A stretch of 64,000 nt of DNA, taken from contig CANFGH010000002.1 of the NCBI GenBank assembly GCA_947446285.1, positions 8,000 to 71,999 of the forward strand. The letters run 5' to 3'. Positions within the stretch are counted from its first letter, which is position 1. Each line of letters begins with the position of its first letter. The DNA is from Chloroflexota bacterium (GTDB taxonomy: Bacteria > Chloroflexota > UBA11872 > UBA12225). Below the pieces are notes generated by a model that searched no databases, was not told the origin of the DNA, and worked only from the letters and a program-made list of their open reading frames with translations. The translations under genes and the position numbers were made by a program. Shown one piece after another: positions 20,589 to 63,928 of this stretch.

Positions 20589-21674
20589 TCAGCGACCCGC
20601 GTGTGTCAGCGCCGCGATGACCGCATCAGTGACCTTGCCCGTTGTGGCCGTGCCACCAAGATCCGGTGTCAGCACGGTGCCCGCCTGCGTGACGGCTTCG
20701 ATCGCCTGCATCAACAATGTGGCAGATTCCGTCTCTCCCAGAAAGTCGAGCATCATCTGACCCGCCCAGATAGTGCCAAGCGGGTTTGCGATCCCCTTTC
20801 CGGCAATGTCCGGTGCCGAACCGTGTACCGGTTCAAAGAGCGACGGGTGACGCCGCGTCGGATCGATATTTGCCGACGGAGGCATCCCCATGCTTCCCTG
20901 AATGGCTCCGCCGAGGTCAGTCAGGATGTCGGCAAAGAGGTTGCTCGCAACCACCACATCAAGGGACTCGGGATGGGTCACGAACCGTGCAGCCATGGCA
21001 TCGACCAAGTACCGTTGCGTCGCAATCGCCGGGTACTCAGTCGCGACTTCTTCGAAGACGTCGTCCCAGAAGACCGCAGAGAACTGCATCGCGTTCGACT
21101 TGGTCACACTCTGAACACTCTTCCGGCCACGAGTGACTGCGTATTCGAAGGCATACCGAATGATCCGTTCGGTGCCCATCCGAGTGAAGACGATGTCCTG
21201 GATTGCCACTTCATGCGGCGTCCCACGATGTACCCGCCCCCCAACACCGGAATACTCGCCCTCGGTGTTCTCGCGTACGCAGACGAAATCAATGTGTTCC
21301 GCACCCTTGCCGACCAATCGTCCGCGCAGTCCCGGCAGGAGACGAACTGGCCTCACGTTGGCGTACTGGTCGAATGCCTTCCTTATCGGAAGGAGCAATC
21401 CCCAGAGACTGATGTGGTCCGGTACCGTCGGCCACCCGACCGCACCGAAGTAGATCGTCTGAAAGGGCTGGAGAACCTTCGTCCAATCCGAAGGCATGTA
21501 CGACCCTTGTTCGAAGTACCGCGCCGTACTCCAGTTGAACCGCTCATAGTCAAGCCGGAACGCGCCGGTCACGTCTGCAAGGTGGTCAAGGACCCGGACA
21601 CCCTCGTTGATGACATCAACACCGATCCCGTCCCCCGGGATCACGGCGACTGCGTAATGGTTCGGCATGGTCAA
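20589..21674 (-). CDS. Tartrate dehydrogenase/decarboxylase-like enzyme (isocitrate/isopropylmalate dehydrogenase family)
   Basis: 361-aa ORF. VIPGDGIGVDV, FGAVGWPTVPDHISLWGLLLPIRKAFDQYANVRP, NLFADILTDLGGAIQGSMGMPPSANI. Confidence 0.85.
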   Translation of the reverse strand: MTMPNHYAVAVIPGDGIGVDVINEGVRVLDHLADVTGAFRLDYERFNWSTARYFEQGSYMPSDWTKVLQPFQTIYFGAVGWPTVPDHISLWGLLLPIRKAFDQYANVRPVRLLPGLRGRLVGKGAEHIDFVCVRENTEGEYSGVGGRVHRGTPHEVAIQDIVFTRMGTERIIRYAFEYAVTRGRKSVQSVTKSNAMQFSAVFWDDVFEEVATEYPAIATQRYLVDAMAARFVTHPESLDVVVASNLFADILTDLGGAIQGSMGMPPSANIDPTRRHPSLFEPVHGSAPDIAGKGIANPLGTIWAGQMMLDFLGETESATLLMQAIEAVTQAGTVLTPDLGGTATTGKVTDAVIAALTHAGR

Positions 21675-21816: not shown

Positions 21817-22608
21817 CTAGACGCCCTGAACCTTTCGTCGTGCCCCCATGAGCGCCCACAGGGTCGCAACCCAAAGGATGCCGCACACAACTGCCAACGT
21901 GCCGGGCAACCACGCCGAACCCGCATGCACCGGCATCGCCCGAGCAAGGTTCGTGACCGCGCGTCGCACCCCCGCCGCTACGGTTTCCTCTCCTGCAAGG
22001 CGGATGAGCAGGGTTCCACGTGCCTGGAATGCGTTCACATAGAGTTCCCCACGGACGTACCGGTTGGGAAACTTTGCAAGGGTTGAGATCCGGTTACCCG
22101 CTGTGTCGGTGCCATCGGGATAGGCCAGCGTCACCAAGTACGTGCGCCCTCGCGAGGCTGAGATCGCCTCGAACCGAACCGGAACCCACGTCTCCTCTGG
22201 AGTTCCGGGCCCAATCCTCCATGCAGACCCGACCGGCAATGCCGAAGCGGCAACGGACGACTTGCGGACGACCCGACGACGGTCTGGTGCAGGCAGGACG
22301 GCTGGCCACGAGGCTTCTGGGAGCGCACCATCCGACAATTCCTCAACGGTGAGTTCCACCACTCCCGGCAAGCCTTCCGTCTCGGCTGCCAGGACCAGGT
22401 CAATCTGGGCAAGTCCGTCCCGATCAGGCACCAGCCCCTGAGCGAGTGACGATGCGCCACCCAGTTTCATCTCCAGGGAGGCCGCCGGTGCCGTCTGGTG
22501 GTCAGCCACTACCGATGGGGACTGCCACCAATACCTCGCAGCGAAGCCTCCGGCAAAGATAGGGATACATGCACCGAGCGCGGCCGCGGTCAACCATCGG
22601 CTGTTCAC
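21817..22608 (-). CDS. Hypothetical bitopic/anchored envelope protein
   Basis: 263-aa ORF. N-terminal TM (WLTAAALGACIPIFAGGFAARYWW) and C-terminal TM (LPGTLAVVCGILWVATLWALMGA) flank a beta-rich segment (WVPVRFEAISASRGRTYLVTLAYPDG...YVRGELYVNAFQARGTLLIRL). Divergent from the GT-C array. Confidence 0.55.
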   Translation of the reverse strand: MNSRWLTAAALGACIPIFAGGFAARYWWQSPSVVADHQTAPAASLEMKLGGASSLAQGLVPDRDGLAQIDLVLAAETEGLPGVVELTVEELSDGALPEASWPAVLPAPDRRRVVRKSSVAASALPVGSAWRIGPGTPEETWVPVRFEAISASRGRTYLVTLAYPDGTDTAGNRISTLAKFPNRYVRGELYVNAFQARGTLLIRLAGEETVAAGVRRAVTNLARAMPVHAGSAWLPGTLAVVCGILWVATLWALMGARRKVQGV

Positions 22609-22766: not shown

Positions 22767-24296
22767 GTGACGCCCACACGCGACGCGGGTCGTCGCACAT
22801 CCCCTGAAACCAGCGGCGACGATGCCCCGTGGCGACGCCAATCTGACGCGAGACTGGGTCTCACGGCGGCGGGCGAGTCTGGCCGGGCCAGATGGGGGCG
22901 ATTTGCGTACCTTACGCGTCTTGTCGCGCTGGTGTTTCGCCATTCCACCCTCGTAAGTTGGGTGATCCTGCCAGTCGTGGCGACCGTCCTGCGCCTGGCC
23001 TATGTCGCAACCCTTCCGCCGACCAACATCGTTACTTTTGAAGCCGACCCAATCACCTACGAACAGATTGCCAGAAACATCCTGTCTGGTCGCGGTTACT
23101 CCGGCGCGTCCTTCTACTATCCGCCGGGTTCCGACACCCTCACGTCCTTCTGGGACCCGCTCTACCCCTACTTCCTCGCGGCAATCTACTCCGTGACGGG
23201 TCCGTCCATCCCCGCAGTACGCATCGTCCAGTCAATCATCGGCGGCATCAGCGTCGGCCTGATCGCGCACGTCGGAACCCGTCTTGGCAGCACTGGCACT
23301 GGCCTGATTGCCTCGGCGTGGGCAACGATCTATCCGTTCTTCTTTTACTACACGGGTCAGTTGCTCACCGAGACCGTCTATATCGGACTGATCCTCGCAA
23401 CAGTTGCTCTCGGCATCGAGGCCATCCATCGACGGCACGCCGGGTGGTTTGTCGCCCTTGGCGTTGCTGGTGGTCTCGCCTCCCTCGGACGCGCCGAGGC
23501 ATTTGCATTCACCATCGCGTACGTAGGGTGGTGCGCCACGCGCAGCGTATCTGAACCCAGGGCGAAGGGGTTGGGTGGTTCGGACGCAGGCAAGAACCAA
23601 TCGCCACTTGAAGGGCAACACTCCTGGTCCGATGCCAAACGTCCCTACATATCCTCCGGGTGGGTCCCCTTGATCACGGTCGGATGGTTGGCCATGGCAG
23701 TCCCGATTGCCCCGTGGGCAATCCGGAACTACATCGTATTTGACCGGCCAATCATGACAACAACCAAGCTCGGCTACAACTTGTACAAGTATTACCATCC
23801 GTTGATGACCGCCGATCAGACCGTCCGGATTGTCCCGTTCCCCGAGTTCGGGACGATGACCGAACCTGAACGCGCCGACCTGATGCAAGCCATCGGCATC
23901 GGGTACATGCTCGAGGACCCGTTGCGAACCGCCACGTTTATGGTGTCGAAGTTCTTCCTGCTGTTCAAGCTGACCCCATCAAACGACGCAACCCGAGGCT
24001 ACGCGCTTGTCAGTCTTTTGAGTTACGGCATCCTGCTGCCGTTCATGGCCGCCGGTGCCGTGATGGCCCTCTTGCGTGGCAAGGCGTGGTGGCCCCTTCT
24101 CGGGTACGTCGCTTTCAACATCGCTTCAAAAACCGCGGTGTTTGCGGGGATCCGATTGCGGATGCAGATCGAACCGTTCTTGCTCATCCTGGCGGCCTTC
24201 GCGGTCGTGAAAATTGGCGAAGCCTTGCGTAATGGCGAGGCAGCGTGGGTACTTGGTGCGCGGCACCGCATTGGTTTCGCCTCGCCACCCCAATGA
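22767..24296 (+). CDS. GT-C family glycosyltransferase candidate (ArnT/PMT_2, GT39/GT83-like)
   Basis: Frame is open from 22569 but overlaps the divergent gene. First plausible start is GTG 22767 (uncertain). Shows TM1, then FEADPITYEQIARNILSGRGY (acidic first-loop motif), then many TM helices. Confidence 0.7.
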   Translation: MTPTRDAGRRTSPETSGDDAPWRRQSDARLGLTAAGESGRARWGRFAYLTRLVALVFRHSTLVSWVILPVVATVLRLAYVATLPPTNIVTFEADPITYEQIARNILSGRGYSGASFYYPPGSDTLTSFWDPLYPYFLAAIYSVTGPSIPAVRIVQSIIGGISVGLIAHVGTRLGSTGTGLIASAWATIYPFFFYYTGQLLTETVYIGLILATVALGIEAIHRRHAGWFVALGVAGGLASLGRAEAFAFTIAYVGWCATRSVSEPRAKGLGGSDAGKNQSPLEGQHSWSDAKRPYISSGWVPLITVGWLAMAVPIAPWAIRNYIVFDRPIMTTTKLGYNLYKYYHPLMTADQTVRIVPFPEFGTMTEPERADLMQAIGIGYMLEDPLRTATFMVSKFFLLFKLTPSNDATRGYALVSLLSYGILLPFMAAGAVMALLRGKAWWPLLGYVAFNIASKTAVFAGIRLRMQIEPFLLILAAFAVVKIGEALRNGEAAWVLGARHRIGFASPPQ

Positions 24297-27253
24297 CCGG
24301 TCAGGCTTCGCCAAGTACGCACCCCGTTCCGGAATGGAGTGCCGAACGTAGTGCATCTACGTCAGGCAGCAAAGATGGGGAGCCGGGGACAGGAAGCCCC
24401 CGTGGGCAACCATCACCATGGCGATTGGCAGGGATTGTGTTCCTGTTCTTTGCCTGTCTCTACGCGTCCACCGCCGGGGCCGTTGGGTATTCCGTCGATG
24501 GCCAATTCTCGTACCGTGTCGCGCGAGACATGGCCAACCGAGGCGTAGTGGCCGCTTTCGAGAAGGAACGCGACCTCTTGCGCCGGTGGGGTCCGGGCCT
24601 GCCTCTCATTGGCGCACCATTCGTGTGGATCGGCGAACGCATCGCCCGCGCCATGCCTCCCATGCACAGCCTGGTTCTGGCAGACCTTCCAGGCGAAACC
24701 GGTCCACGTCCCGTCTTGCTAACCGACACACCTCCAATCAGTCGGGATCGCATCAACGCGCCACAGGACCAGTCCTCACTAACCCTCCCCATCCCGGCCG
24801 GGACTGGTCAGATCACTGCGTTGACCCTCATTTCCTATCTCTCGTTCGCCCGCGACATCCCGACGGGAACGCCAATCGCGACTGCCACCTTCTTCGATGC
24901 CGATGGGCGGACCCTCGGCGAAGTGATCCCCATCAGGGTGGGCGATGACACCTCGGAATGGGCATACGACGACCCAATCCAGGGCAAACCCGTCCATTCG
25001 CGGGCGAAGGTCGCCGGGATGTGGACGGGCAACCCGGATGCAGTCATCTACCGGATGACCGCTCCGGTCGCCAAGGGCGATCTGACTACAAATCAAGTGG
25101 GGAGGGGAGGGGAGGGGGTCGCATCTTCAATCAGGTTCGACGCGGTCACCGAGACCGGGCGGCTTCATTTGCGCGCGGTCTTGGTCAGAGGCGAACGCGG
25201 TTCGAAAGCCGTGACCGAAGTCACGAGTGGCTCCACTCACGAGACGGCGGATTGGGTGACCCGAGCCGCCTTCGGGTTTGCGAACGTGATCCCCGGCGCG
25301 GCATCTGTAGGACTTCTCATTCCGATCGCCAGTTGGTATGGCGCGTCGCGTCGCACCACCTTGACCATCGCATTGCTTTTTGGGGGCGCAACCCTCGCCT
25401 GGCCATACGCCCGCTTTGACTTCTCGGAGACGCTTGCCGGCGCGTTTGCGATCGGGGCATTCGCCGCCCGCATCGCATCAATCGACGCGACGACCACCCG
25501 TTGGACCGTGATGTTCAACCTGATCGCCGCGCTCGCTACCGTCGGGGCCGGGCTCACCAAGTACACCGCTCTCTGGTTCATCGGACTGATAGCGATTGAC
25601 GCCATCGTGCACCCAGGGCGCATTCCCCGGACCGTCACCGCAGTCGCCATCGCAATCCTAGGAATGCTGGTCGGGGTCGTCGCCCTAGCTGGTGGGGTGT
25701 CGGCGCCAATCCTCATAACCCAGTTGTGGGATGGGCTGACGCGCGGTTGGCTTGGCTTTCCGCTTTGGGCGGGACTTGCCAGTCTGGTGCTGTCGAGCGG
25801 CAAGGGCTTGGTCTGGTTCGCGCCGCCGGTGCTTCTCGCCGGTATGGGTGCCGTGTCGTTCGTTCGCCGTCACGGATCTCGGGCCTGGATTCCGGTCGCG
25901 GTCTCGCTCATGTATCTCGCAATTTTTGGCAGCAAGGGCGGGTGGCATGGCGGAGGTTGGGGTCCGCGCTACCTGGTGCCGATGGTCCCATTCCTGATGC
26001 TTCTCTCGCTTCCGGTGATTGGGGCCGCCGTTGATCGCGAACCCGACGCACCTCGCGCTTTCGGGGAGGGCCAAGCCAAGCGTCTAGCAATCAAGAGCGA
26101 TGGGGGAGGGCGGGGCTGGATCCGGTTTGCGCAGTGGGCGACCATCTTGACGACTTTGGCAGGGCTGGCTGTCCAGACGGAGGTCGTCCTGAAGCACCCC
26201 AATGCCTACTCGATCATGTTCCGTGACCACATAGCCCCGGAACTGGACGGCTACGGGATTGCAGTCGGCGGAACGTTGGCATCGACTTATGCCGAGTACT
26301 ACCGTGTAGAGAAGGCGCGATCCGAACTGGTGTCCCCGCCTGGTGCGCCAACGGACATCCACGGCAACCCGCTTCCGCGGCGAGGCCTTGGGCATGCCAT
26401 CGACCGCGATAGCCCGATGGTGGTGAAGATCTGGCCCGAGCGCACGGGACGCTTCCGCCTCACGGTCTACCTGTGCAACTACGACGGACTACCCGAAGAG
26501 GACCGGTTCCAGAACATGACGGTTGTCGATGCCTCTGACATCCAGTCGGTGATGGTGACGGACTTTGCCCGTGGTGAATACATCACGTGGGTGGTGGATG
26601 CACGTGTCGGCGACCCGGTCACCCTTCTCGCGTACGACTCCGGTTCGGCGTTCCCGGTCGTTTCCGCGCTCTTTTTCGACCCGGACACCGAGACGAGCGG
26701 GCCGGTGTCACCAATCCAGGACCGGTCGACTGGCGGCGACTGGGTTGGCCGGTACGGGCGTGACGGTGCACTCCTCCTTGCCTGGGAGATGGGACCCCGC
26801 GACGTTGGCAAACTCCCGCCCTACATCAATGCGGTCACTGGAGGCGAGCGGGTCTGGGTGGACACCGGCGAGGCCGAGCGGTCGGAGATCGCCATGCTGT
26901 ACGCGCCCGGGTTCAGTCCATTGCTCGCCCACGCATGGTTGCTTGGCAACGACCTGATCCGCTTCTTGTGGCCCGCCGATGCCGCGTTGCAGCAACGTGC
27001 CCTCGCGTCACCACCCTGGCGCTACGTACATGGATTGGAAGTGCACAGCCCGCATCCGGAGTACGGTCTCGGCATCGACCTGTGGCCGATCGAGGCGCGC
27101 CAGATGTTCGCATCGCACTCCGGTGTGATGGCTGCGGTGTGGGTCGTTGAGGGACTGTTCCTCATTGGACTGGCCGTTGCGGCGGTCATGGTGGTCCGCG
27201 CGTGGAACAACAGTGGTGCGGCTGCTCCCGGAGAAGGGAGGGAACGCCCGTGA
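24293..27253 (+). CDS. Giant polytopic membrane protein, paralog A (GT-C-like core with two large soluble inserts)
   Basis: ATG 24293 overlaps the upstream TGA (ATGA). TM1, then GYSVDGQFSYRVARDMA. A ~200-aa insert carries IRVGDDTSEWAYDDP. About 10 further TM helices, then a ~330-aa soluble region (GGDWVGRYGRDGALL..LPPYINAV), then terminal TM helices. Confidence 0.65.
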   Translation: MTGQASPSTHPVPEWSAERSASTSGSKDGEPGTGSPRGQPSPWRLAGIVFLFFACLYASTAGAVGYSVDGQFSYRVARDMANRGVVAAFEKERDLLRRWGPGLPLIGAPFVWIGERIARAMPPMHSLVLADLPGETGPRPVLLTDTPPISRDRINAPQDQSSLTLPIPAGTGQITALTLISYLSFARDIPTGTPIATATFFDADGRTLGEVIPIRVGDDTSEWAYDDPIQGKPVHSRAKVAGMWTGNPDAVIYRMTAPVAKGDLTTNQVGRGGEGVASSIRFDAVTETGRLHLRAVLVRGERGSKAVTEVTSGSTHETADWVTRAAFGFANVIPGAASVGLLIPIASWYGASRRTTLTIALLFGGATLAWPYARFDFSETLAGAFAIGAFAARIASIDATTTRWTVMFNLIAALATVGAGLTKYTALWFIGLIAIDAIVHPGRIPRTVTAVAIAILGMLVGVVALAGGVSAPILITQLWDGLTRGWLGFPLWAGLASLVLSSGKGLVWFAPPVLLAGMGAVSFVRRHGSRAWIPVAVSLMYLAIFGSKGGWHGGGWGPRYLVPMVPFLMLLSLPVIGAAVDREPDAPRAFGEGQAKRLAIKSDGGGRGWIRFAQWATILTTLAGLAVQTEVVLKHPNAYSIMFRDHIAPELDGYGIAVGGTLASTYAEYYRVEKARSELVSPPGAPTDIHGNPLPRRGLGHAIDRDSPMVVKIWPERTGRFRLTVYLCNYDGLPEEDRFQNMTVVDASDIQSVMVTDFARGEYITWVVDARVGDPVTLLAYDSGSAFPVVSALFFDPDTETSGPVSPIQDRSTGGDWVGRYGRDGALLLAWEMGPRDVGKLPPYINAVTGGERVWVDTGEAERSEIAMLYAPGFSPLLAHAWLLGNDLIRFLWPADAALQQRALASPPWRYVHGLEVHSPHPEYGLGIDLWPIEARQMFASHSGVMAAVWVVEGLFLIGLAVAAVMVVRAWNNSGAAAPGEGRERP
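25099..25118 (+). other. Canonical G-quadruplex-type motif GGGG-A-GGGG-A-GGGG-A-GGGGG on the sense strand of paralog A
   Basis: Read directly: gtggggaggggaggggagggggtc. Encodes VGRGGEGV. Confidence 0.85.
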
Positions 27254-30243
27254 TTGCCTTCCTGACGGCGCGACGCCACGGTGACGCACAAACGACGCGC
27301 AGATCCACCTGGCGCCGTGGGGTGGGGTTGAACCTGACGGCCATCGTCCTGGCGATCTACCTGATGACCGGAGGCGGCCATGGCTACAGCATTGACGGCG
27401 CCTTTGCGTTCGAGATGACCAAGACTGCCTTCCTCGATCCGGATCATCAGTACTTCACACGGTTCAAGACCGCGTTTGCCCGGTGGGGAATTGGGCTGCC
27501 GATCATCGGGCAACCGTTCATCCTTGCCGGGGCGGCGCTTGGAACCATTGCTCCCGAACGCGACGACTTGACCGCGGATGGCCACCGCTTCCGAGTCGAA
27601 GAGTGGCCCGTGGTGTCGGCCGGGAAGACCGAGATCTTCCCGGTGCCGGGTTCCATCGTCTCTGGCTCCCCGGTGACCACGTTCACCATTGTCAGCTTTC
27701 TGGCCAACACGGTGGCGGTGCCTGACGGGACGACGGTTGCCGAACTGCGCCTGGTAACCGCCACGAACACGGTGACGATCCCTATTCGCGCCGGGATGGA
27801 GACCGCCGAGTGGGCGTGGGATCGACCGGATATCCGGGGAACGGTCGCTCACGCACGCGCACGTGTCGCCGGGCACTGGATCGGCCAACCGAGGGGAAAC
27901 CTCTACATCGCTTCGATACCGGTTCCAGTGCCAGTGTCGATCGACCGGTGGGAAGTTGCCGGGTCCGGTGGCCTTGGTCAGGCCGGTACCTTTTCGCTTC
28001 GCGCGGTCACGATCGGCACGGTGCCTGCCCGCACCCCGACTCCGTCAACGCCCGTAACGTGGCATGACGCACGAACCGGCGAGCGATTCTGGTCCGAACG
28101 GCAGACGGGCGACTTCTTTGCTCACCTCGGGTTCAGCGTCACCAATGCCGTGGTCACCGCCGCAACGGTCTGGGCGCTGTATCGCGCCACCCTGAACTTC
28201 GGCTACCGCCCGGTCGTCGCCCTCATTGTCGGTGCAGCGTTTGGCTTGGGAACCCTCGCGTGGCCGTACGCGAAGTATGACTTTGCAGAACCGACCGCAT
28301 CGCTCGCCTTGGCGTTGGCGGTACTGGCAATCCACCGGAACTTTCCGCCGAGTGTCACTCCCAGCCCGGCAACACCAGCATGGGCACGCCGTTCGACGTC
28401 GGTCCCGCCTACCCCCCTCGCGACGCGGGAAGGGGGAGTGGGCGTTCTCTCGGCCATGCCGGCGCTCCCGGGGTTCGCGGACCCTCTACCACTGCGGCGC
28501 AAATTACGCGTCATGGCCTACACGACGATGCTGGCCCTGATCTTCGCCATCGGGGCGAAGTACACCGCCATCCTCGGGGTCGTCGCGGTCGTCGCCGAGC
28601 TTTTCGTCACATCGCAACCGTGGCGACGTGACCGGCGACGCGATGCCCTCCGGTTTGCGGGAATAGTCGCCTTGCCGGGCGTTGCCGTCGCCACGGCAGC
28701 CATCGGTGTTGGCCTCTGGACGACGGGTGAGACCCCGATCGTGCTTACCTCGGACCTGTCGCGCCTCACCAGTGACTGGCTCTCGCTGCCGTTTTGGACA
28801 GGTTTCCGGGGCCTCGTATTCAGTTTGGGGAAGAGTCTTTTCCTGTATGCTCCATGGCTGCTGCTCGCAATCCCCGGGTCGATCCTTTGGGTCAGGCGCC
28901 ATCGCTTCTCTGGATCCGCGCTGACGGTGGTGTTTCCAATCGTCACGATCCTGCTCTACAGCATGAAACTTGTCTGGCATGGCGGATCATGGGGACCCCG
29001 CTACCTGCTGATGACCGTCCCATGGTTGACCCTCGCTACCGCACCAGTCGTTGACACTCTCATCACACGCCGTTTCGGGCGTGTGATCCTGAGCGTCCTG
29101 GCCACTATGTCTCTCGCAATCCAGGTGATCGCCATCGCCAAGCATCCGGAGCAATACCCGGCGATGGTTCGCCGCCATGTCGTGCCCACCATGACACAGT
29201 TCGGCGCAACGTATGGAGGCCAAGACTATTGGGATGCGCGAAAAGGTGACCGCCTTGTCATGGCACTCCGCGACCCGGATCCCGAGACCGGCCGGTCACG
29301 CAGTCTTGGGTACCTATGGGGGCTTCCCGATGCATCGGTAACCATCACCGCACCCGAAAGCGAAGGGCCAATCCTCCGGGATGTCAACCTGAGCCTCTAC
29401 GTCATTGACTGGGACCGGCAGGGGCGGACCGAAACGATGACGATCACCGACGCAATCGATACCCGCCGGGTTGACCTCGACCAAGGTCTGGACGAAGGTG
29501 TCTGGGTTCGCGCCGTCATCCGTATCGACCCGGCCAACCCGGTCACTGTGGGAATCCGGCAGACCGGACCAGACACCGCGGTGGTGTCGGCGATGACCTT
29601 TGATCCCATCTCCCCCGGAATGGCCGGTTCCTCGCGGGAGGTTCGCCTCGATCGGCACACCCGTGGCGAATGGCCTGGCACCTACGGACGCGATGGGTAT
29701 GCCTTCTTTGGGTTCCGAAGCTTCAACATTGACCTGGCGAAACTGCCTCCCTACGTCAAGGGATACGAACTCCGCCACGTCGGAGACCGAGAACACCCCA
29801 CCATCCACGTCGAAATTCCCGAAGACGACCTTCTCGATACCGCAATGCTGTACGCCCCACCGTTCAGTCCCATCCTGGGAAACATCTGGCTCCTTGGCGC
29901 AGATGCATTCCACCTTGTGCTGCCATCACGACCGGACTTCACCCAGGGTGTCCTCCTGCGCCCTCCGTGGACGTGGTTTGGCATCAGTGCCCCAGTCCCA
30001 CCTCACCCTGAATATGGACTCGGTCTCGACTTCTGGCCGACGTTGATCTGGACTACGTATGCATCTCACACTGGCGTGATTGTCGTATCGGGAACCGTCC
30101 TCCTTGGCCTCCAAGGGGTAATCCTCACCTGCACGAACCAGTTGCTCTCAACACTTGGGCTGGTCCGTCGCTCTCGCCTGACCTCAATCGGGGTTGTCAC
30201 CGCGATGCTGGTGGTCTTCGACTGGCTGCAGGTGCAGGGGTGA
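27250..30243 (+). CDS. Giant polytopic membrane protein, paralog B of 24293..27253
   Basis: GTG 27250 overlaps the upstream TGA (GTGA). Collinear with paralog A: GYSIDGAFAFEMTKTAF; IRAGMETAEWAWDRPDIRG; RGEWPGTYGRDGYAF..LPPYVKGY. Has an extra ~40-aa loop that coincides with a hairpin-repeat copy. Confidence 0.65.
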   Translation: MIAFLTARRHGDAQTTRRSTWRRGVGLNLTAIVLAIYLMTGGGHGYSIDGAFAFEMTKTAFLDPDHQYFTRFKTAFARWGIGLPIIGQPFILAGAALGTIAPERDDLTADGHRFRVEEWPVVSAGKTEIFPVPGSIVSGSPVTTFTIVSFLANTVAVPDGTTVAELRLVTATNTVTIPIRAGMETAEWAWDRPDIRGTVAHARARVAGHWIGQPRGNLYIASIPVPVPVSIDRWEVAGSGGLGQAGTFSLRAVTIGTVPARTPTPSTPVTWHDARTGERFWSERQTGDFFAHLGFSVTNAVVTAATVWALYRATLNFGYRPVVALIVGAAFGLGTLAWPYAKYDFAEPTASLALALAVLAIHRNFPPSVTPSPATPAWARRSTSVPPTPLATREGGVGVLSAMPALPGFADPLPLRRKLRVMAYTTMLALIFAIGAKYTAILGVVAVVAELFVTSQPWRRDRRRDALRFAGIVALPGVAVATAAIGVGLWTTGETPIVLTSDLSRLTSDWLSLPFWTGFRGLVFSLGKSLFLYAPWLLLAIPGSILWVRRHRFSGSALTVVFPIVTILLYSMKLVWHGGSWGPRYLLMTVPWLTLATAPVVDTLITRRFGRVILSVLATMSLAIQVIAIAKHPEQYPAMVRRHVVPTMTQFGATYGGQDYWDARKGDRLVMALRDPDPETGRSRSLGYLWGLPDASVTITAPESEGPILRDVNLSLYVIDWDRQGRTETMTITDAIDTRRVDLDQGLDEGVWVRAVIRIDPANPVTVGIRQTGPDTAVVSAMTFDPISPGMAGSSREVRLDRHTRGEWPGTYGRDGYAFFGFRSFNIDLAKLPPYVKGYELRHVGDREHPTIHVEIPEDDLLDTAMLYAPPFSPILGNIWLLGADAFHLVLPSRPDFTQGVLLRPPWTWFGISAPVPPHPEYGLGLDFWPTLIWTTYASHTGVIVVSGTVLLGLQGVILTCTNQLLSTLGLVRRSRLTSIGVVTAMLVVFDWLQVQG
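28412..28438. repeat. GC-rich hairpin repeat copy inside the CDS of paralog B
   Basis: cccccctcgcgacgcgggaagggggag is the reverse complement of the 15096-15122 core (cgcgggaagggggag identical). Translated as PTPLATREGGVG. Confidence 0.75.
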
Positions 30244-33173
30244 GTTCCGACAGCGGGCTCCCCACCCCATCGCCCCTGAGTGCAAGACGCTTCGCTCCTC
30301 GCCACGATCCAGGCGCGCATCGCACGAAGCAAAGCGTGAGTCAGTCGGGCGGGGCGGGCTGGTGGTCGGGTTTCGCCTGGATTCCGCTTGTCGTTCTCGC
30401 CGGGTGGTATCTCTGGCCAATCGCGGGACCAGGTCGGCTTCCCCAGAACCTCGACCTCATGCTTCAGTACGTCCCGAACGCCGCGCATCTTGCCCGTTCC
30501 CTTTCGCAGTGGCACATCCCCCTCTGGAACCCATGGCAGGGCGGCGGGATGCCATTTGCCGCCGATCCCGGCACCGGCGCCTGGTATGTCCCGAACTGGA
30601 CACTGCTTGCAGGCCTGGATCTCTGGAGTGCAGTACGTGCGTCAATCTGGTTTCACCTCGCAACTGCGATTGCCGGCACGTGGTTCTGCCTTCGGCATGG
30701 CGTGCGCGTCGGCCCGATTGCTGCAATTGCGGGGACGGCGACATTCACGCTGACTCCTTGGTTGCCGGGCATCGCCGGGATGCCGGTCGTACTCACGAGC
30801 CTGGCCTGGATGCCGTGGGTTGTCTTCGCCGGACTGCATCTGGCGACACTGTCCAGACCGTCGGCCCGCCTCATCGGTGTCCTTGCAACATCCACGACAT
30901 TGCAACTGGCCAGTGGATGGCCTGCCGGTGCCTACCTGTCGTGGTTGACCATTGGTGGCGCGATTCTCCTCGGTCATGGACGCGCAAATGAACGATGGGT
31001 CCAACGCTTGCGCCACCTCATCCCGAGTTACGTGGCCTCAGGGTTGCTTGCTTCGGTCATGGCAGGCGTAGTCCTGATCCCAGGTGCCGAGTTCGTCGCG
31101 GAGACGACCTACGCCACCACGAGGCCCCTCGAAAGCCTCGGCAGTGACGGGTACCTGACCCTGCTATCGTGGCTTCGCCCAGCTGCCGGGGCGGGCGCCG
31201 TCGAAGGTGGACAGGTCTCAGTCGGAATCGTGGCCCTCTGCCTCGCCGTGACTGCACCGGCCATCCTCTGGCGCACGGGTCATCACGACAGGTTGACCAT
31301 CTGGGGTGGGGTGGCCCTGGTGTCCATCGTTCTGTCGTGGGGTACGCGAACCCCACTGTTCGGCCTTCTCTACGCGTGGCTGCCGGGCTTTCGGATCCTG
31401 TACCTGCCAGCACGCCTCGGGATCATCGCTGCATTCGCACTGTCAGCGCTCGCTTCATTAGTGATCGACGTTCTGGACAAGCCACCCAACGAGGGGCGAG
31501 ACCCATCCTACCTATCTCCCGCGACGCAAAGGCAATTCGCCACCACCCCGCCGCCCCTGATGTCCATGCGCTTCACTACCATCTGCGGACTTCTGACGGC
31601 CCTTCCCGTCATGATGATCCTCCAGTTCTGGCATTCGGAGGGGTACGACAACTTCCGTCGCCTCCTCACGAACCTCTGGCGCATTGCCGGGACACCGTTC
31701 CTCACCGTGGGTCAGGAATTCCACACGCTGGTGTTCGGACTGGTCGTCCTGGCGATCCTATTTTCGAACCAGCGCCGTCCAGTCCCAAAGGCCGGGGTTC
31801 TCTTGGCGATTGCAGTGATCGCCGATCTCGGATCGCTGCGATTGATGACCCAGAATGTGTCGTTCAACCCAGATGCTTGGTACGCCCCAGCCTACGCGTC
31901 AGCACGAACGATCGCGCTGAGCATTGGTCACGACCGCTATCTCGGTCTTGTCTGGCACGGAGAAGACCTGCCACGCCACTTCCTCGGCGACTTCCCAAGC
32001 GCTACACGAACCGGTCAACTACCGCCAAATCTCGGTCTCCTCACGGCGACACGAGACGCCCAAGGTTACAACCCGCTCATCCTGCGGACCGCAGCGACTG
32101 CCTTCGCGAACGTGGGCAACAACGACGATCACTGGCTGTGGGCCAACCGGTTCGACACCGCCGGCCTCTCACCCCTTGCCGTCCGTGCCATCATAATGGG
32201 AGAGGCCGGCGTCACTTCGAGAAATACTTCCCTAGTTGCCAGTGAATGGCGGGTGACCACCCTTGACCTCGGGCAGGCCACCGCGGACTGTTGTTCGGAA
32301 GTACCAATCTGGTCGGCAACCGGCAACCCGGTATTCACTGGCCTCCTGGAGGCGATCACTTTTTTCGGGGAAGGTACAACGGTTGCGCAAGGACAGACCG
32401 CTGCTGAAATCCGCCTGACCGGCCCTGACGGTACGACGGCAACCTACCCACTCCGTGCAGGCGTCGAAACTGCCGAATGGGCGTGGGACCGACCAGACGT
32501 CCGCACGATCGTGACGCATGGTCAGGCCCCCGTTGCACTGGTCACTCGCATGGTCAGTGCCGTTGGCGGACGATTCGACACCTTCGAATACCGTGCCACC
32601 CTGCCAATAGCACTTCCGGGTGGGATCGTGAGTGCCACGTTGCGGTCAACGATCCCGGGAGTGCGCGTTCACCTGACACACCTCGCCATGCATCCTCCAA
32701 CCGACATGGAGCCATGGGTGCGGGAACCGTGGGGCATGCGCGCCACCAGTACGACCCCATCACTCGTCCCTGATGATCGCTCCGTTTGGCCTCCAACGCG
32801 CCTTCGGGTTGTCCCGCCGGAAGCCGGAACCGCAACGTGGGTGACCGACGACCCAGAACGTCTGGTCATCTCCACGTCCCTTGCATCCGATGCCATGATC
32901 GTGATTGCGGACACCGACTATCCTGGATGGCGGGTTTCGATCGACGATGTGGCGACTGCGGATGCGTCCCCACATACGCTGAGCGCGTCGCAGGGAGTGC
33001 GTTCACCTGACATTCCGTTCGGTCGGTCGATACCGTCACCAGCCGGAAAACACGTGATCGAACTGACCTTCGATCCGTCGTCGACGCGTCTCGGCTTTGC
33101 CATCAGTTGCATCGGCATCATGGTCGCAGGGTTCCTTATCAGCTTTGACCCCTCACCAATTCGCCGTGTCTAA
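30240..33173 (+). CDS. Large polytopic membrane protein, YfhO-like, with C-terminal 'ETAEWAWDRPD' module
   Basis: GTG 30240 overlaps the upstream TGA (GTGA). An alternative start at GTG 30336 would exclude a repeat copy. YfhO-type motif SQWHIPLWNPWQGGGMPFAADPGTGAWYVP. C-terminal LRAGVETAEWAWDRPDVR and DTDYPGWRVSIDD, then a final TM. Confidence 0.65.
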   Translation: MSSDSGLPTPSPLSARRFAPRHDPGAHRTKQSVSQSGGAGWWSGFAWIPLVVLAGWYLWPIAGPGRLPQNLDLMLQYVPNAAHLARSLSQWHIPLWNPWQGGGMPFAADPGTGAWYVPNWTLLAGLDLWSAVRASIWFHLATAIAGTWFCLRHGVRVGPIAAIAGTATFTLTPWLPGIAGMPVVLTSLAWMPWVVFAGLHLATLSRPSARLIGVLATSTTLQLASGWPAGAYLSWLTIGGAILLGHGRANERWVQRLRHLIPSYVASGLLASVMAGVVLIPGAEFVAETTYATTRPLESLGSDGYLTLLSWLRPAAGAGAVEGGQVSVGIVALCLAVTAPAILWRTGHHDRLTIWGGVALVSIVLSWGTRTPLFGLLYAWLPGFRILYLPARLGIIAAFALSALASLVIDVLDKPPNEGRDPSYLSPATQRQFATTPPPLMSMRFTTICGLLTALPVMMILQFWHSEGYDNFRRLLTNLWRIAGTPFLTVGQEFHTLVFGLVVLAILFSNQRRPVPKAGVLLAIAVIADLGSLRLMTQNVSFNPDAWYAPAYASARTIALSIGHDRYLGLVWHGEDLPRHFLGDFPSATRTGQLPPNLGLLTATRDAQGYNPLILRTAATAFANVGNNDDHWLWANRFDTAGLSPLAVRAIIMGEAGVTSRNTSLVASEWRVTTLDLGQATADCCSEVPIWSATGNPVFTGLLEAITFFGEGTTVAQGQTAAEIRLTGPDGTTATYPLRAGVETAEWAWDRPDVRTIVTHGQAPVALVTRMVSAVGGRFDTFEYRATLPIALPGGIVSATLRSTIPGVRVHLTHLAMHPPTDMEPWVREPWGMRATSTTPSLVPDDRSVWPPTRLRVVPPEAGTATWVTDDPERLVISTSLASDAMIVIADTDYPGWRVSIDDVATADASPHTLSASQGVRSPDIPFGRSIPSPAGKHVIELTFDPSSTRLGFAISCIGIMVAGFLISFDPSPIRRV
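30261..30300 (+). repeat. Copy of the CCCCATCGCCCCTGA repeat family at the 5' end of the YfhO-like gene
   Basis: cccaccccatcgcccctgagtgcaagacgcttcgctcctc. Confidence 0.8.
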
Positions 33174-33280: not shown

Positions 33281-34456
33281 ATGAATGCTGTTGAACCTTC
33301 CGCTGAACCCTCCGCATCTTGGGACGCCCCCTACGACACGTTTTCGAAGAAATGGAACTACTATCCGCGCGACGTGATCCCGATGTGGGTTGCCGACATG
33401 GACATGCCTCACGCCCAAGTGATCATCGAGGCGGTCATGCGCCGGATCACCGAGAACCGGATCGGGTACCCGGGTCAGGGTGGCAAGCACTTGGCGGAAA
33501 CACTGGTCGCACGTCTGAGCGAACGCCACGGCCTGCATGGTCTTCCTGCGGAGAACGCAGTCTTCATGTCTTGCGTTCCCGGCCTGCATGCAACCGCGCG
33601 CGCCCTGACGGCGCCCGGTGACGCGATTGTGGTGCAAACTCCCCTATACGGTCCGTTCCTGGATGCGATCTCGACCGCACGTCTCCAACGCCAGGATAAT
33701 CCCCTGGTCCCCGGCCCAAATGGCTATGAGATCGATTTCGATCACCTCGAAACCGTCATCACTCCGGCCACCAAGGTTCTGATGGTGTGCAACCCGCACA
33801 ACCCAACAGGCAGGGTGTGGCGCCGTGCCGAACTCGAACGACTTGCCGACGTCGTACTACGCCATCGCCTATGGCTCGTCAGCGACGAACTTCACAACGA
33901 ACTTGTCTTCGACGGACCGTACATCCCTTTCGCAAGCCTTTCGACCGAACTGGCGATGCGCACGATCACACTGACCGGCCCGGCGAAGACCTTCAACACC
34001 GCTGGTCTGAGCACCGGGATCACGATCAGCCACAGCGCGGCGCTGATCAGCCGTGTGCGTGCCATCACGCATGGACTGGTTTCTGGGTGCCCGAACGTCC
34101 TCTCCGAGGCCGCCTGGCTCGCAGCCATCGCCACTCCTGAAGGCGATGCGTGGCACCAGTCAACGCTCGCCGACCTCCGTGCAAACCGTGACCAGCTGAC
34201 GGCATTCCTTCATGACCACGCCCCGCGCGTGGCTTATCACCCGTCCGAAGGGACCTACTTGGCGTGGCTTGACGTCCGCGCGTACGACTGGGGCAAGGAG
34301 AAGCCGGGCGACTTCCTGCTTGAGCATGCAAGGGTCGGGCTCAGCGATGGCCTCGGCTACTCGCCGACCGGCGCAGGACACGTGCGACTGAACTTCGCTA
34401 CGACCCGCCCGGTCCTCGACGAGGCACTCAACCGCCTCAAACCATTCCTCGCCTGA
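33281..34456 (+). CDS. PLP-dependent aminotransferase class I/II, MalY/PatB-type C-S lyase-like
   Basis: 391-aa ORF. DTFSKKWNYYPRDVIPMWVADMDMPHAQVIIEAV and MVCNPHNPTGRVW are typical of PatB/MalY-type enzymes. Unusually AT-rich 40 nt upstream. Confidence 0.8.
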   Translation: MNAVEPSAEPSASWDAPYDTFSKKWNYYPRDVIPMWVADMDMPHAQVIIEAVMRRITENRIGYPGQGGKHLAETLVARLSERHGLHGLPAENAVFMSCVPGLHATARALTAPGDAIVVQTPLYGPFLDAISTARLQRQDNPLVPGPNGYEIDFDHLETVITPATKVLMVCNPHNPTGRVWRRAELERLADVVLRHRLWLVSDELHNELVFDGPYIPFASLSTELAMRTITLTGPAKTFNTAGLSTGITISHSAALISRVRAITHGLVSGCPNVLSEAAWLAAIATPEGDAWHQSTLADLRANRDQLTAFLHDHAPRVAYHPSEGTYLAWLDVRAYDWGKEKPGDFLLEHARVGLSDGLGYSPTGAGHVRLNFATTRPVLDEALNRLKPFLA

Positions 34457-34502: not shown

Positions 34503-36614
34503 TCACGTAACCGGGCCATCACCTTCGTCGGCCAAGCGTTCGACCTGCCATGCGGCAGCCCAGGCAGTCACCGAAACCACGAGCAATCCGACCATGACCA
34601 GGACACCGGAAACTGCGGGGTTGCCGTCTGGTCCCCGTAGCCAGTGGATGTCAAGGCTGGCGTCGCCACCGCGAAGCCACAGGCGCGAGAGTCGCACATG
34701 CGCGGTGACCCCCGAGAAGTACGGCACCCACGTCGTCGCCAGGTAGGTCGCCCCGAGTGACCAATGGTCCTGCCATCCCCGACTGAAGTCGACAACGATG
34801 GCCAAGGCATTTGCCACGACATTCAAAGCCCACGGCAGCCCAATCGCAAGCCAGGCAAAAGGGTTCCTGCTCATTCCACCCCGCCCACTCGCCCCCGATT
34901 GAGCGTCGCTCCGCTTCGCCCACCCCATCCGCTTCACAATCGCCGCGACAGGGAGGTACGCCAACGGTGCTACCCCAACCAAGTATCGCGGGCCCCATGT
35001 CGTCTGGGCGCACCACGTTGTCTCGAGGCTTCCGTAATACAGGCACGCAAGACCCACCATGGCTGCAACCGCACCGGCCGTATCCGGGGCGTCCTCCCAG
35101 AGCCAGACCAGCCCCGCGAGACCAACGAACATCATTGGCGCATGCACGGCAATCCCGCATCCCGGACTGAACAGAAGCCCGAACCACCCATACCACGGCT
35201 TCTCCAGCAACGAAGAGAGGAATCCTTCTCCGCCATAGCCGAAATCGAGGGCCTGACCGGTCCGCATCAGGTTGTAGCCAAGGGTAAGTGGCAGTGCGGT
35301 CACGCCACCGGCCACCACGGCCAGTCCCCCCAGGAATGCCCCGCCTGCGAGTCCGGACCGTTGGAAAACCACCCAGGCGAGCAATGCCCACAGTGGCAAG
35401 GCGAGGACCAGATATTCGTACCGCGCCGCCCCGGCGAGGCCGAGGAGGGCGCCGGCGAGGGCAGCCATGCGACCGGCGTCGAAATCAGGAGCTTTGGGTT
35501 CCCGGTTGGGTCGGTCAACCCCAGTTGCGCGACGCAGGTACCCGATCACCGCCATGGCCGCCCCGGTCAGGGCCGCCGGAAGTGCCATGTTGAGAACAGT
35601 GCGCGAATACGGCCAAACCAAGGAGGCCGTGGCAACCGCCAATGCCGGCAAAAGCGACGATGCCCCACGATACCCAAGTGAACGAGCCATGAGATAGGTC
35701 ACCATCACGGTCAATGCGCTGAGGAATGGCCCGAACCCAAGTGTCACGAGGTCTGGTGCACGGCGGGCCAGCGGACCTTGCCCGGCGGTACGCGGTTCAG
35801 GCGCACCGAATATCCGCGCAACTGCCTGAAAGGGAGAAATCGCCAACGACGAAAGCACTGGGTACTTCGACATGAGGCCAGAAGACTCTTCCTCGGGGTG
35901 ACCAGGCCGACGCACAATTCCGACAACCGTGAACGGGTAGGGTTCGCCATCGAAGATGGCTAGCCGCCCATGTTCCACCAGACCGACCGCGGCACCGTGT
36001 GCCGTCCATTCGTCAGGTGTCACGAGTTCGCCGGATGCCGTCGCCACAAAGAAGGCAAACGCACCACCAAGGACAAGAAGTGTCACCGTGGCCCCATGTC
36101 GGCCACTTTCCGACGGGCGAAGCACACCCACATCCGTCAAGACAGGATCGGATTGCCGTTGGTCGCGAGTTGGTCCGTAACCAGTCCGAATGCGCCATTC
36201 CACCGCAGCGATGGCCAGCCGCGAAACCAGGATGATTCCGATCAGCAGCGCGATCGCCCCTCGAACACGGGGCAAGGTCGCCCACGCATGATTCAGGTCG
36301 TCACTGACCCATAGCGAGCCAAGCAATAGTGCGAGCGCACCAACTTCCAAGAACAGAAAAGGTCTTGAGGTACCGCCGCCTGGCAATACCGTCACCAAAC
36401 CATCCGGGCGCGTGTCGCGACGCTGATGAAGCCAACTCGCAGCGATAACGGCGAACCCGCCACCAGCGCCGACGATCAGTGCTGGCACAAGCCACGCAAA
36501 ACTTGCCCCTAACCCGCGTTGGCCGGTCGCGACACTTCCACCAAACCACCCGGCGAGGACCGCACCAAGCAGGACACTCCACGGGGCCGGCAATGTCCAC
36601 CGCACCTCACGCAT
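34503..36614 (-). CDS. Polytopic membrane protein, GT-C-like candidate
   Basis: 703-aa ORF with >12 hydrophobic segments. First loop GELVTPDEWTAHGAAVGLVEHG, then KYPVLSSLAISPFQAVARIFG and LTVMVTYLMARSLGYRGA..LVWPYS. Same order of elements as paralogs A/B but without the large inserts. Confidence 0.6.
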   Translation of the reverse strand: MREVRWTLPAPWSVLLGAVLAGWFGGSVATGQRGLGASFAWLVPALIVGAGGGFAVIAASWLHQRRDTRPDGLVTVLPGGGTSRPFLFLEVGALALLLGSLWVSDDLNHAWATLPRVRGAIALLIGIILVSRLAIAAVEWRIRTGYGPTRDQRQSDPVLTDVGVLRPSESGRHGATVTLLVLGGAFAFFVATASGELVTPDEWTAHGAAVGLVEHGRLAIFDGEPYPFTVVGIVRRPGHPEEESSGLMSKYPVLSSLAISPFQAVARIFGAPEPRTAGQGPLARRAPDLVTLGFGPFLSALTVMVTYLMARSLGYRGASSLLPALAVATASLVWPYSRTVLNMALPAALTGAAMAVIGYLRRATGVDRPNREPKAPDFDAGRMAALAGALLGLAGAARYEYLVLALPLWALLAWVVFQRSGLAGGAFLGGLAVVAGGVTALPLTLGYNLMRTGQALDFGYGGEGFLSSLLEKPWYGWFGLLFSPGCGIAVHAPMMFVGLAGLVWLWEDAPDTAGAVAAMVGLACLYYGSLETTWCAQTTWGPRYLVGVAPLAYLPVAAIVKRMGWAKRSDAQSGASGRGGMSRNPFAWLAIGLPWALNVVANALAIVVDFSRGWQDHWSLGATYLATTWVPYFSGVTAHVRLSRLWLRGGDASLDIHWLRGPDGNPAVSGVLVMVGLLVVSVTAWAAAWQVERLADEGDGPVT

Positions 36615-41569: not shown

Positions 41570-41576
41570 GGTGCGG

Positions 41577-42449: not shown

Positions 42450-42642
42450 CGGGTCCGCGGGCATCCCCGCCCGTCCGTTGGATCCACCCCATCCACCTGA
42501 TGAACTCGCCCCAGTCAGCCCGGGTAGAGGTACATTGGAACCGCCTTCAGATGCTGAATGCCCGGGCGTGGGCACCAACGTCGGAATCCCACTCATTCGC
42601 CGAACCCCGTCGCCCCTGCCATACGTACGCTGCGCTTGGTCG
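42367..42642 (+). repeat. Cluster of four copies of the CCCCATCGCCCCTGATT repeat family upstream of, or in the first codons of, wzm
   Basis: 42367: gcccctcccaatcgcccctgattggaagatggttcgcttggcc. 42408: cccaccccatcgcccctgattagaaggcgtgtcgcc. 42484: ccaccccatccacctgatgaactcgcc. 42604: accccgtcgcccctgccatacgtacgctgcgcttggtcg. Confidence 0.8.
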
Positions 42643-42705
42643 TACTCGCCACTCGCATCTAACGGTGCGGCAAATGTGCGGGTACCGCGAGACGCACCCG
42701 GGAGG

Positions 42706-43026
42706 TCAGTCCGATTGCATCGCACGTGCCCGCGCAATCTCGTCCGGTTCGGCAGGCGCGACACCATCGACTTCTGCGTGGGCCGCCTCGGATTCAAAGG
42801 CAAGTTTCACGTGATAGGCGATGTCGGGTGTGAACCACTCGTCGATCGTGCGAGCAAGTTCGCGCACGCGCATCGTCTCGAACTGGATTTCCAGTTCCTC
42901 GCGTGTGAAGACGCCCTTGGCAATCAGCACCTCGGCCATTGCCCGCATCTGAACGTAGGCAACGATGGAGTGGCCTGCCACGCTCATCATCATGCGCGCA
43001 ATCGGCGCGTCCACCTCGTCAGACAT
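42706..43026 (-). CDS. Small hypothetical protein (106 aa) heading the wzm-wzt operon
   Basis: ATG preceded by AGGAG at ~9 nt. Helical-looking sequence MSDEVDAPIARMMMSVAGHSIVAYVQMRAMAEVLIAKGVFTREELEIQFETMRVRELARTIDEW. No family recognised. Confidence 0.45.
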   Translation of the reverse strand: MSDEVDAPIARMMMSVAGHSIVAYVQMRAMAEVLIAKGVFTREELEIQFETMRVRELARTIDEWFTPDIAYHVKLAFESEAAHAEVDGVAPAEPDEIARARAMQSD

Positions 43027-63902: not shown

Positions 63903-63928
63903 GCGCTTGAACTCTTGGTTGCAAGCGC
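63903..63928 (-). terminator. Hairpin after the stop of the edge gene
   Basis: GCGCTTG-12 nt-CAAGCGC, a perfect 7-bp stem. No U-tract. Confidence 0.25.

Follow-up and report, generated by a model that had tools for sequence, protein, structure and literature searches.

An array of four overlapping genes for predicted GT-C glycosyltransferases in a Chloroflexota glycan locus, three of them sharing a beta-sandwich module

This work reports an array of four overlapping genes for large polytopic membrane proteins, here named G1 to G4, in a glycan locus of a Chloroflexota bacterium. The window, namely the whole stretch of DNA that was analysed, comprises 64,000 nt of contig CANFGH010000002.1 (assembly GCA_947446285.1, positions 8,000 to 71,999 of the forward strand), and all positions below are counted from its first letter. 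Together with two further proteins of the same locus, Y5 and F6, the array products are supported as six enzymes of the GT-C type of glycosyltransferases, distributed over three sequence families. In addition, G2, G3 and G4 have in common a ~120-aa beta-sandwich module, which was not mentioned in the first-pass annotation of this DNA and is described here for the first time. We propose, with moderate confidence, that G1 to G4, along with Y5 and F6, glycosylate an ABC-exported envelope polysaccharide outside the membrane by using polyprenyl-phosphate-sugar donors, with the module holding the acceptor.

Results

Four overlapping genes form a conserved array

All four genes lie on the forward strand, G1 at 22767-24296 (509 aa), G2 at 24293-27253 (986 aa), G3 at 27250-30243 (997 aa) and G4 at 30240-33173 (977 aa), and they are chained by 4-nt start/stop overlaps, which are ATGA at 24293-24296 (G1/G2), GTGA at 27250-27253 (G2/G3) and GTGA at 30240-30243 (G3/G4). 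The chain, its coordinates and the three tetranucleotides had been reported in the first-pass annotation, and they are borne out by the listing of open reading frames (ORFs), by direct reading of the sequence and, for G3 and G4, by public gene calls; the product sizes given there (~510, 986, 997 and 977 aa) agree as well, the first being read here as 509 aa. In the public calls of contig CANEWN010000003.1 (GCA_947442665.1), the boundaries of G3 and G4 are identical, with the 4-nt overlap included, and database proteins near-identical or identical to G3 (P0001, 997 aa) and G4 (P0064, 977 aa) have equal lengths. For G1, an in-frame ATG at 22752, 15 nt upstream, provides an alternative start. The window has a G+C content of ~63% throughout, and G1 to G4 are real genes, not chance ORFs of GC-rich DNA, because each of them has many homologues and the models of G3 and G4 fold confidently.

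A 4-nt start/stop overlap is common in bacterial operons, and therefore the overlaps by themselves are unremarkable. They gain weight because the same ATGA/GTGA/GTGA series is conserved in the orthologous arrays of other Chloroflexota metagenome-assembled genomes (MAGs), at protein identities of 47-93% (L001-L006 and L037; L numbers designate the loci of the synteny scan described below). A clear Shine-Dalgarno-like sequence (GGGAGGG) precedes the start of G3 only, and none was found upstream of the G2 start, which is compatible with, and no proof of, termination-reinitiation. A scan of 21.7-34.6 kb for promoter- and terminator-like sites inside the array was uninformative, as the counts equalled those of shuffled sequence. 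Given the conserved overlaps, G1 to G4 probably constitute one operon, in which the translation of the successive genes could be coupled.

The array proteins and two neighbours are predicted GT-C enzymes

A strict hydropathy scan assigned 6-11 transmembrane (TM) segments to each of G1 to G4, Y5 and F6. The N-termini before TM1 are Arg-rich, and therefore, by the positive-inside rule, the first loops and the modules described below would face outward. Models were built for G3 and G4, and it was only structure prediction plus Foldseek that connected these two proteins to solved GT-C enzymes, while G1, G2, Y5 and F6 are tied to the GT-C type by sequence or profile. Six GT-C/YfhO-type candidates had been named in the first-pass annotation, and each of them has now gained Pfam, hhalign, family or Foldseek evidence, with PMT_2 matched by G1, YfhO by Y5, and solved folds by G3 and G4. 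The motifs quoted for the array are all present, namely FEADP in G1, YSVDG in G2, YSIDG in G3 and IPLWNPWQGGGMPF in G4, and the acidic residue right after TM1, which had been noticed in three of the four proteins, has a counterpart in each family, where the first-loop Asp turned out to be invariant or nearly so, as given below.

G1 matches Pfam PMT_2 (PF13231) with an E-value of 7.5e-13 and 49.4 bits against a gathering cut-off of 26.1, and its listed homologues, nearly all of which contain PF13231, go by the names GT39, ArnT-like or 4-amino-4-deoxy-L-arabinose-transferase-like. The FEADP motif occupies residues 91-95 (nt 23037-23051), and its Asp94 is invariant in 28 homologues at identities down to 26%, while the longer string VTFEADPxTYxQIA is invariant in 6 orthologues. 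To judge from its sequence, G1 is an ArnT/PMT_2-type (GT39-like) GT-C glycosyltransferase with Asp94 as a probable catalytic residue. PDB sequence and profile searches with G1 returned nothing meaningful. A kinship of G1 with G2/G3 was considered and rejected, since no similarity was detectable (hhalign E 0.55).

G2 and G3 align over their full lengths (30% identity, E 2e-92) and are paralogues within a family that is found almost only in Chloroflexota MAGs. Neither these two nor G4 matched Pfam at E<=0.01, none of the three had a PDB sequence match, and the profiles of the G2/G3 and G4 families likewise gave nothing meaningful. Within the G2/G3 family, Pfam PMT is matched by 9 of the 37 members and PMT_2 by 5 of them, and a single-copy ~750-aa relative in L049 passes the gathering cut-offs of both. 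The Asp of the YSxDG motif, which is Asp69 in YSVDG of G2 (residues 66-70, nt 24488-24502) and Asp49 in YSIDG of G3 (residues 46-50, nt 27385-27399), is invariant in 37 sequences including G2, at identities down to 23%. The other family invariants (in G3 numbering) are W338, Y340, E347, K437 and W581-G-P-R-Y585, and G2 carries all of them; in G3, AWPYA is encoded at nt 28258-28272 and WGPRY at nt 28990-29004.

The AlphaFold2 model of G3, built with 37 family sequences (pLDDT 85.9, pTM 0.84), shows a long helical bundle with beta domains at residues 106-273, between TM1 and TM2, and 686-854. Its top Foldseek matches in the PDB were Pmt4 (6.6e-4), ALG12, ALG9, ArnT, AftD and ALG3, all of which are GT-C enzymes, with probabilities from 0.82 (AftD) to 1.00. 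The model therefore supports the placement of G3, and through the 30% identity also of G2, as predicted GT-C enzymes of a PMT-related, nearly Chloroflexota-only family that is absent from Pfam. The layout that the first-pass annotation had proposed for both paralogues, a polytopic core with an N-proximal insert and a soluble C-proximal domain, holds, with the insert measuring ~175 aa; the size of the C-proximal non-membrane stretch is to be revised from ~330 to ~310 aa, of which ~170 aa form a beta-sandwich and the remainder conserved helices in the G3 model, and two more TM helices follow it. G3 further resembles, weakly and locally, the putative glycosyltransferases of NCBIfam LA_3751/LA_3752 (NF047440) with 3.8e-8 and 32.6 bits, and F6 does so with 1e-4 and 21.2 bits, both far short of the family cut-off of 200 bits and over ~110-180 residues only, in the SPGK...WGPRY core.

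F6 (34503-36614, reverse strand, 703 aa) is a diverged third paralogue of the G2/G3 core, as hhalign aligned its residues 283-559 with the G2/G3 family profile (probability 98.7%, E 4e-16), in line with its earlier listing as a further GT-C candidate. It has an additional ~170-aa N-terminal membrane extension and 11 TM segments by hydropathy, and it retains WPY, SPG and WGPRYL, while E347 and K437 are replaced and SPGK is changed to SPGC. These lost invariants are what could suggest that some of the paralogues (G2 or G3, and F6) act as non-catalytic scaffolds, so that the active enzymes would be fewer than the genes. However, G2 and G3 keep every family invariant, the loop-1 Asp included, and both clades predate the divergence of the sampled species and have persisted in an unchanged gene order. 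Scaffolding paralogues are thus highly improbable in our judgement, and a partial loss of catalysis appears plausible only for F6.

As for G4, about 20 orthologues at 25-45% identity match Pfam YfhO (PF09586), which G4 itself does not. In the 32 sequences of the G4 family, conservation reaches at least 90% for Asp72, located in NLDLML (nt 30447-30464), and for the PLWNP..G.PF motif; IPLWNPWQGGGMPF of G4 spans residues 93-106 (nt 30516-30557). The AlphaFold2 model of G4 (pLDDT 79.1, pTM 0.85) is again a long helical bundle and was matched by AftD (6.9e-7), EmbC (1.9e-5) and ArnT (7e-5), and more weakly by AglB/STT3 (E 0.015-0.05). G4 is therefore predicted to be a divergent YfhO-type GT-C. Y5 (4911-7772, reverse strand, 953 aa) shares the N-terminal D..Q..P and PLWNP..G.PF motifs with G4; it matches Pfam YfhO in its last 43 residues only (33.6 bits against a cut-off of 28.5), and its N-terminal core aligns with the G4-family profile (hhalign probability 99.5%, E 8e-23), so that the earlier designation of this protein as YfhO-like is upheld at the profile level. 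In addition, Y5 gave weak matches to the streptococcal PgfM1/PgfM2 (E 0.04-0.07), far below the cut-off.

The lower-ranked AglB/STT3 oligosaccharyltransferase matches of G4, along with the lack of an LCP ligase in the window, would fit an alternative in which at least one of the GT-Cs acts like PglB/AglB, as a transferase or ligase that passes a finished polymer en bloc from polyprenyl-diphosphate to peptidoglycan, lipid or protein and so replaces the LCP ligase. However, the better matches use monophosphate-linked donors (AftD, EmbC and ArnT for G4; Pmt4, ALG9/12 and ArnT for G3), no oligosaccharyltransferase signature such as WWDYG was seen in these proteins, and an LCP gene may sit elsewhere in the genome. 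En-bloc transfer is therefore very unlikely in our view. The predicted donor of G1 to G4 is a lipid-phosphate-linked sugar.

G2, G3 and G4 share a beta-sandwich module

The sole region that G2, G3 and G4 all share is the ~120-aa beta-sandwich module. Its copies, all on the forward strand, are found at 24764-25192 in G2 (residues ~158-300, in the first extracytoplasmic loop), at 27625-28014 in G3 (residues ~126-255, between TM1 with its juxtamembrane helices and TM2) and at 32328-32693 in G4 (residues ~697-818, in the C-terminal ectodomain, ahead of the final TM helix). A hidden Markov model (HMM), built from the module columns of the G2/G3-family and G4-family alignments, recognized them with independent E-values of 8e-30, 7e-47 and 5e-42, respectively, and detected the module in no other ORF of the window, including Y5, F6 and u263, a neighbour of G1 described below. 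By BLASTP, residues 132-207 of G3 and 688-766 of G4 are 47% identical (E 3e-14), and the profile-profile comparison of the G2/G3 and G4 families aligned ~117 columns (probability 99.1%, E 1.5e-18) that belong to the module only; a detectable kinship between the membrane cores of the two families was therefore rejected. The core motif of the module reads RAGxETAEWA(W/Y)DRPD, and RAGxETAEWAWDRPD in G3, where the AlphaFold2 model places the module within the all-beta domain 106-273, after the conserved Asp and before TM2.

When a profile of the three copies was searched against 1.84 billion cluster representatives, 1084 proteins were matched at E<=1e-3 and 274 at E<=1e-10. Ten module-bearing proteins were sampled, for which the cluster listings gave almost no taxonomy; 7 of them contain Pfam YfhO, and up to 4 module copies occur in some. 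Pfam has no separate model for the module. The soluble domains of the G3 and G4 models had Foldseek similarity, though weak, to the beta-sandwiches of CBM16, CBM22, laminin-G and binary-toxin receptor-binding domains, which suggests that the module may bind carbohydrate. With its ~1,100 cluster-level matches, this unannotated ~120-aa module could be defined as a new domain or a new carbohydrate-binding module (CBM) family.

The array expands a cluster conserved in Chloroflexota

The G2/G3 profile was scanned against one genome per GTDB species, which yielded 192 related stretches; 75 distinct loci were kept, almost all of them with a Chloroflexota label. The G1-G2-G3-G4 array together with its flanks occurs in 8 loci from about six or seven species-level genomes, and therefore the synteny of the four genes is conserved across genomes. 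Two of these 8 loci (L004 and L037) hold a fifth GT-C-like gene between G1 and G2, so that the array is four to five genes long depending on the lineage. This extra polytopic gene (L004 7070-8725, L037 ~4960-6770) has the motifs DDAEF after TM1 and YPPGYP; in L004 it shares the reading frame of G2, for which an assembly artefact (a run of X) may be responsible.

Nine loci have two G2/G3-type genes in tandem, and about 40 loci only one G3-like gene, of ~700-750 aa and devoid of the C-proximal beta domain. Most of these single-gene loci are collinear, in the order Wzm, Wzt, GT2/GT4, G3-like gene, radical SAM, GT4s, acetyltransferase, X7, GT4 and YfhO, and a few have a G3-like gene without these neighbours. 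Y5 represents the YfhO of this core cluster and is syntenic in about 25 loci. The locus of the window is thus the conserved Chloroflexota cluster with its GT-C complement expanded. In a rough neighbour-joining tree of the genes from the window, L002, L004, L005, L008 and L037, the G2-type (first-position) and G3-type (second-position) genes form separate clades, which indicates that the duplication is old and the gene order stable; it does not represent a lineage-specific duplication. Our literature search found no description of this cluster.

The conserved neighbourhood also bears on a further alternative, protein O-glycosylation, in which sugars would be moved from polyprenyl-phosphate-sugars onto emerging Ser/Thr-rich surface or S-layer proteins, and the module would bind the protein or the growing glycan. 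Distant G2/G3 relatives do match Pfam PMT, a protein O-mannosyltransferase family, Pmt4 is the best structural match of G3, PgfM1/PgfM2, to which Y5 is weakly similar, glycosylate proteins, and the locus has no enzyme for initiation on a lipid carrier. However, the conserved partners are genes of ABC-transporter-dependent polysaccharide synthesis, no candidate target protein is conserved alongside, the PgfM matches fall far short of their cut-off, and the characterised monoderm PMT_2/YfhO enzymes mostly act on wall polymers (PMC8035078). We therefore regard protein as an unlikely acceptor.

Other genes of the locus

A GT2-GT4 fusion (36630-39662, reverse strand, 1010 aa; Glycos_transf_2 6e-21, Glycos_transf_1 2e-13), which adjoins the G3-like gene in about 35 loci, is likely the cytoplasmic chain-building glycosyltransferase of the ABC-dependent pathway. 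The transporter consists of Wzt (39659-41635, reverse strand; ABC_tran 5e-23, Wzt_C 30.5 bits against a cut-off of 30.4) and Wzm (41577-42803, reverse strand; ABC2_membrane 3e-19), the exact starts of both being uncertain; TagH and the galactan-export Wzt/Wzm come closest to it in NCBIfam, though under the cut-off in both cases. Wzm and the GT2 gene at 43207 are separated by a gap that contains a 144-aa soluble ORF (42706-43140, reverse strand). A nitroreductase-S-adenosylmethionine methyltransferase fusion (10191-11720, reverse strand) is located inside the glycan locus, and together with Wzt_C it could conceivably act as a methyl chain-terminator.

The most constant neighbour of the G3-like GT-C, present in nearly all Chloroflexota loci, is a radical SAM/SPASM protein (18877-20109, reverse strand; Pfam Radical_SAM and SPASM), for which no specific NCBIfam assignment was found. 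It is separated from u263 by an isocitrate/isopropylmalate-dehydrogenase-family gene (20589-21674, reverse strand), whose position is kept in L005, L006 and L037 (79-97% identity). The product of u263 (21817-22608, reverse strand, divergent from G1) is bitopic, with a TM segment at each end and a ~200-aa ectodomain; it has no family match and is kept next to G1 in L001, L005, L006 and L037. X7 (7833-10088, reverse strand), a 751-aa soluble protein without a match in Pfam, NCBIfam or PDB sequences, is conserved near the YfhO-like gene in about 25 loci. Directly after G4 lies a PatB-type C-S lyase/aminotransferase gene (33281-34456, forward strand; NCBIfam 1e-100, just under the cut-off), which is present only in the closest relatives (L001-L003).

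The other genes of the locus encode many GT4s, including a double GT4, and an acetyltransferase, and MOP-family (Polysacc_synt) proteins are encoded at 1995-3524 and 60934-62523. The locus may combine three assembly routes, as the first-pass annotation had suggested. It ends near 44.2 kb, beyond which housekeeping genes follow, and tandem Peptidase_C26 (gamma-glutamyl hydrolase-like) genes are found at 59193-60107 and 59969-60922 (reverse strand). At the right edge of the window, the second MOP-family flippase (60934-62523, forward strand) and a GT4 (62585-63970, reverse strand) possibly mark the start of another glycan locus.

Discussion

We propose that the enzymes encoded by G1 to G4, Y5 and F6 could modify an exported polysaccharide in the following manner. 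First, each enzyme would reside in the cytoplasmic membrane with its conserved Asp in the first outward loop, and would use a polyprenyl-phosphate-sugar donor to glycosylate an acceptor at the outer face of the membrane. The acceptor would most likely be an envelope polysaccharide that is built in the cytoplasm by the GT4/GT2 enzymes and exported by the adjacent Wzm/Wzt, and G1 to G4, Y5 and F6 would add side branches or an outer glycan domain to it after export. The module of G2, G3 and G4 could keep this common glycan acceptor near the active sites, while the 4-nt overlaps could keep the four proteins co-expressed. Precedents exist for both steps, as YfhO-/PMT_2-type GT-Cs use C55-P-sugars for the glycosylation of teichoic acids and wall polysaccharides on the outer side of the membrane, and large GT-Cs bear carbohydrate-binding ectodomains that are thought to bind the acceptor (PMC8035078).

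Several observations weigh against this proposal. The searches for missing functions covered the ORFs of at least 150 aa that were taken as real genes, with most overlapping alternatives left out, and the two larger gaps. They revealed no GtrB/CsbB/Ppm1-type membrane GT2, i.e., a polyprenyl-phosphate-sugar synthase, no GtrA-type flippase among the ORFs and no small polytopic ORF in the gaps, no initiating phosphoglycosyltransferase (Bac_transf, WecA/MraY-type) and no LCP ligase. A single GT2 (43207-44229) is free-standing, and it is devoid of TM segments, with MftF-/EpsD-like families as its best NCBIfam matches; therefore, the donor side is unsupported in cis. Furthermore, proteins too can be substrates of PMT-family and YfhO-family (PgfM1/PgfM2) enzymes, the evidence for a CBM in the module consists of weak structural matches (E around 0.1-0.3) and conserved aromatic residues only, and the relatives, the closest of which stem from lakes (e.g., Lake Biwa and ZH samples), are all uncultured MAGs. 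The scanned ORFs contain no nucleotide-sugar gene either, so that the first-pass annotation was right in describing the locus as devoid of both an initiating phosphoglycosyltransferase and nucleotide-sugar genes; the former may be encoded elsewhere in the genome.

A wider and more speculative scenario, which we advance with low confidence, is that the array takes part in a two-stage assembly of a major envelope heteropolysaccharide in many Chloroflexota, comparable to that of arabinogalactan in mycobacteria, wherein a primer made in the cytoplasm and exported by Wzm/Wzt would be extended and branched on the outer side by 4-6 GT-Cs. In such a scenario, G2 and G3 might form an obligate heteromer, as EmbA-EmbB or Pmt1-Pmt2, the RAGxETAEWAWDRPD module would be a new CBM family that moved between unrelated GT-C families and targets them to the same polymer, and the product would constitute the undefined outer envelope layers. 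Chloroflexota have no lipopolysaccharide/BAM machinery, yet they possess multilayered envelopes, the layers of which have only been suggested to be polysaccharide or protein (PMC13319060). Since the underlying cluster, here in expanded form, is conserved across dozens of Chloroflexota species genomes, the locus provides candidate genes for a Chloroflexota envelope layer.

The GT-C superfamily and the logic of the system are already known, and the current understanding of GT-C enzymes is not overturned by these findings. The new elements are the unannotated G2/G3-type GT-C family, which is missed by current domain libraries, its architecture with a beta-sandwich inserted inside the catalytic first loop, the module that crosses families, and the unusually large array of overlapping GT-C genes.

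Among known systems, the three-component (multi-component) transmembrane glycosylation systems of monoderm bacteria (CsbB-GtcA-YfhO, GtlA-GtlB and GacI-GacL) resemble the present locus in that YfhO-/PMT_2-type GT-Cs act on wall polymers outside the membrane, large GT-Cs bear carbohydrate-binding ectodomains, and the genes lie in, or are linked to, clusters for ABC-exported polysaccharides (PMC8035078). However, each of those systems has one GT-C, usually accompanied by a GtrA flippase and by a membrane GT2 for the synthesis of the C55-P-sugar (PMC8035078), whereas here six GT-Cs are encoded in one locus, four of them by overlapping genes, with no GT2 donor synthase or GtrA nearby and with a G2/G3 family that is unrecognised by Pfam. 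The PMT/ArnT-type enzymes (PF02366 and PF13231; CAZy GT39/GT83) are related more directly, as G1 is a genuine member of PMT_2, PMT/PMT_2 gathering scores are attained by single-copy relatives of G2/G3, and a conserved acidic residue in loop 1 is common to both; G2 and G3 differ from PMT in scoring nothing in Pfam, in having the ~175-aa beta-sandwich in loop 1 and a second ectodomain, and in lacking a MIR domain.

The third comparison is with the mycobacterial arabinogalactan/lipoarabinomannan pathway, in which Wzm-Wzt galactan export is followed by AftA-D and EmbA/B/C (PMC7305291; bioRxiv 10.1101/2019.12.22.885152). The Emb resemblance of G2/G3 raised in the first-pass annotation concerns architecture and not family membership. 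Membership in Emb (GT53) was rejected, since G2 to G4 have no Emb/Aft signature in Pfam, G3 is structurally nearer to Pmt4, ALG and ArnT, and in G2/G3 the conserved Asp directly follows TM1, in the insert-bearing loop, and two TM helices come after the C-proximal domain; moreover, no genes for a decaprenyl-phosphoryl-arabinose (DPA)-type donor accompany the array, and the phylum is Chloroflexota. Nevertheless, EmbB has one jelly-roll domain between TMH1 and TMH2 and another at its C-terminus (PMC7305291), and G2/G3 correspondingly have one beta-sandwich inserted between TM1 and TM2 and a further one in the C-proximal region, the paralogues G2 and G3 are encoded side by side as embA and embB are, and no solved structures match G4 better than AftD and EmbC do. 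The Chloroflexota locus and the mycobacterial pathway are also alike in pairing an ABC-exported primer polymer, which is a proposed one in the former, with clustered GT-Cs.

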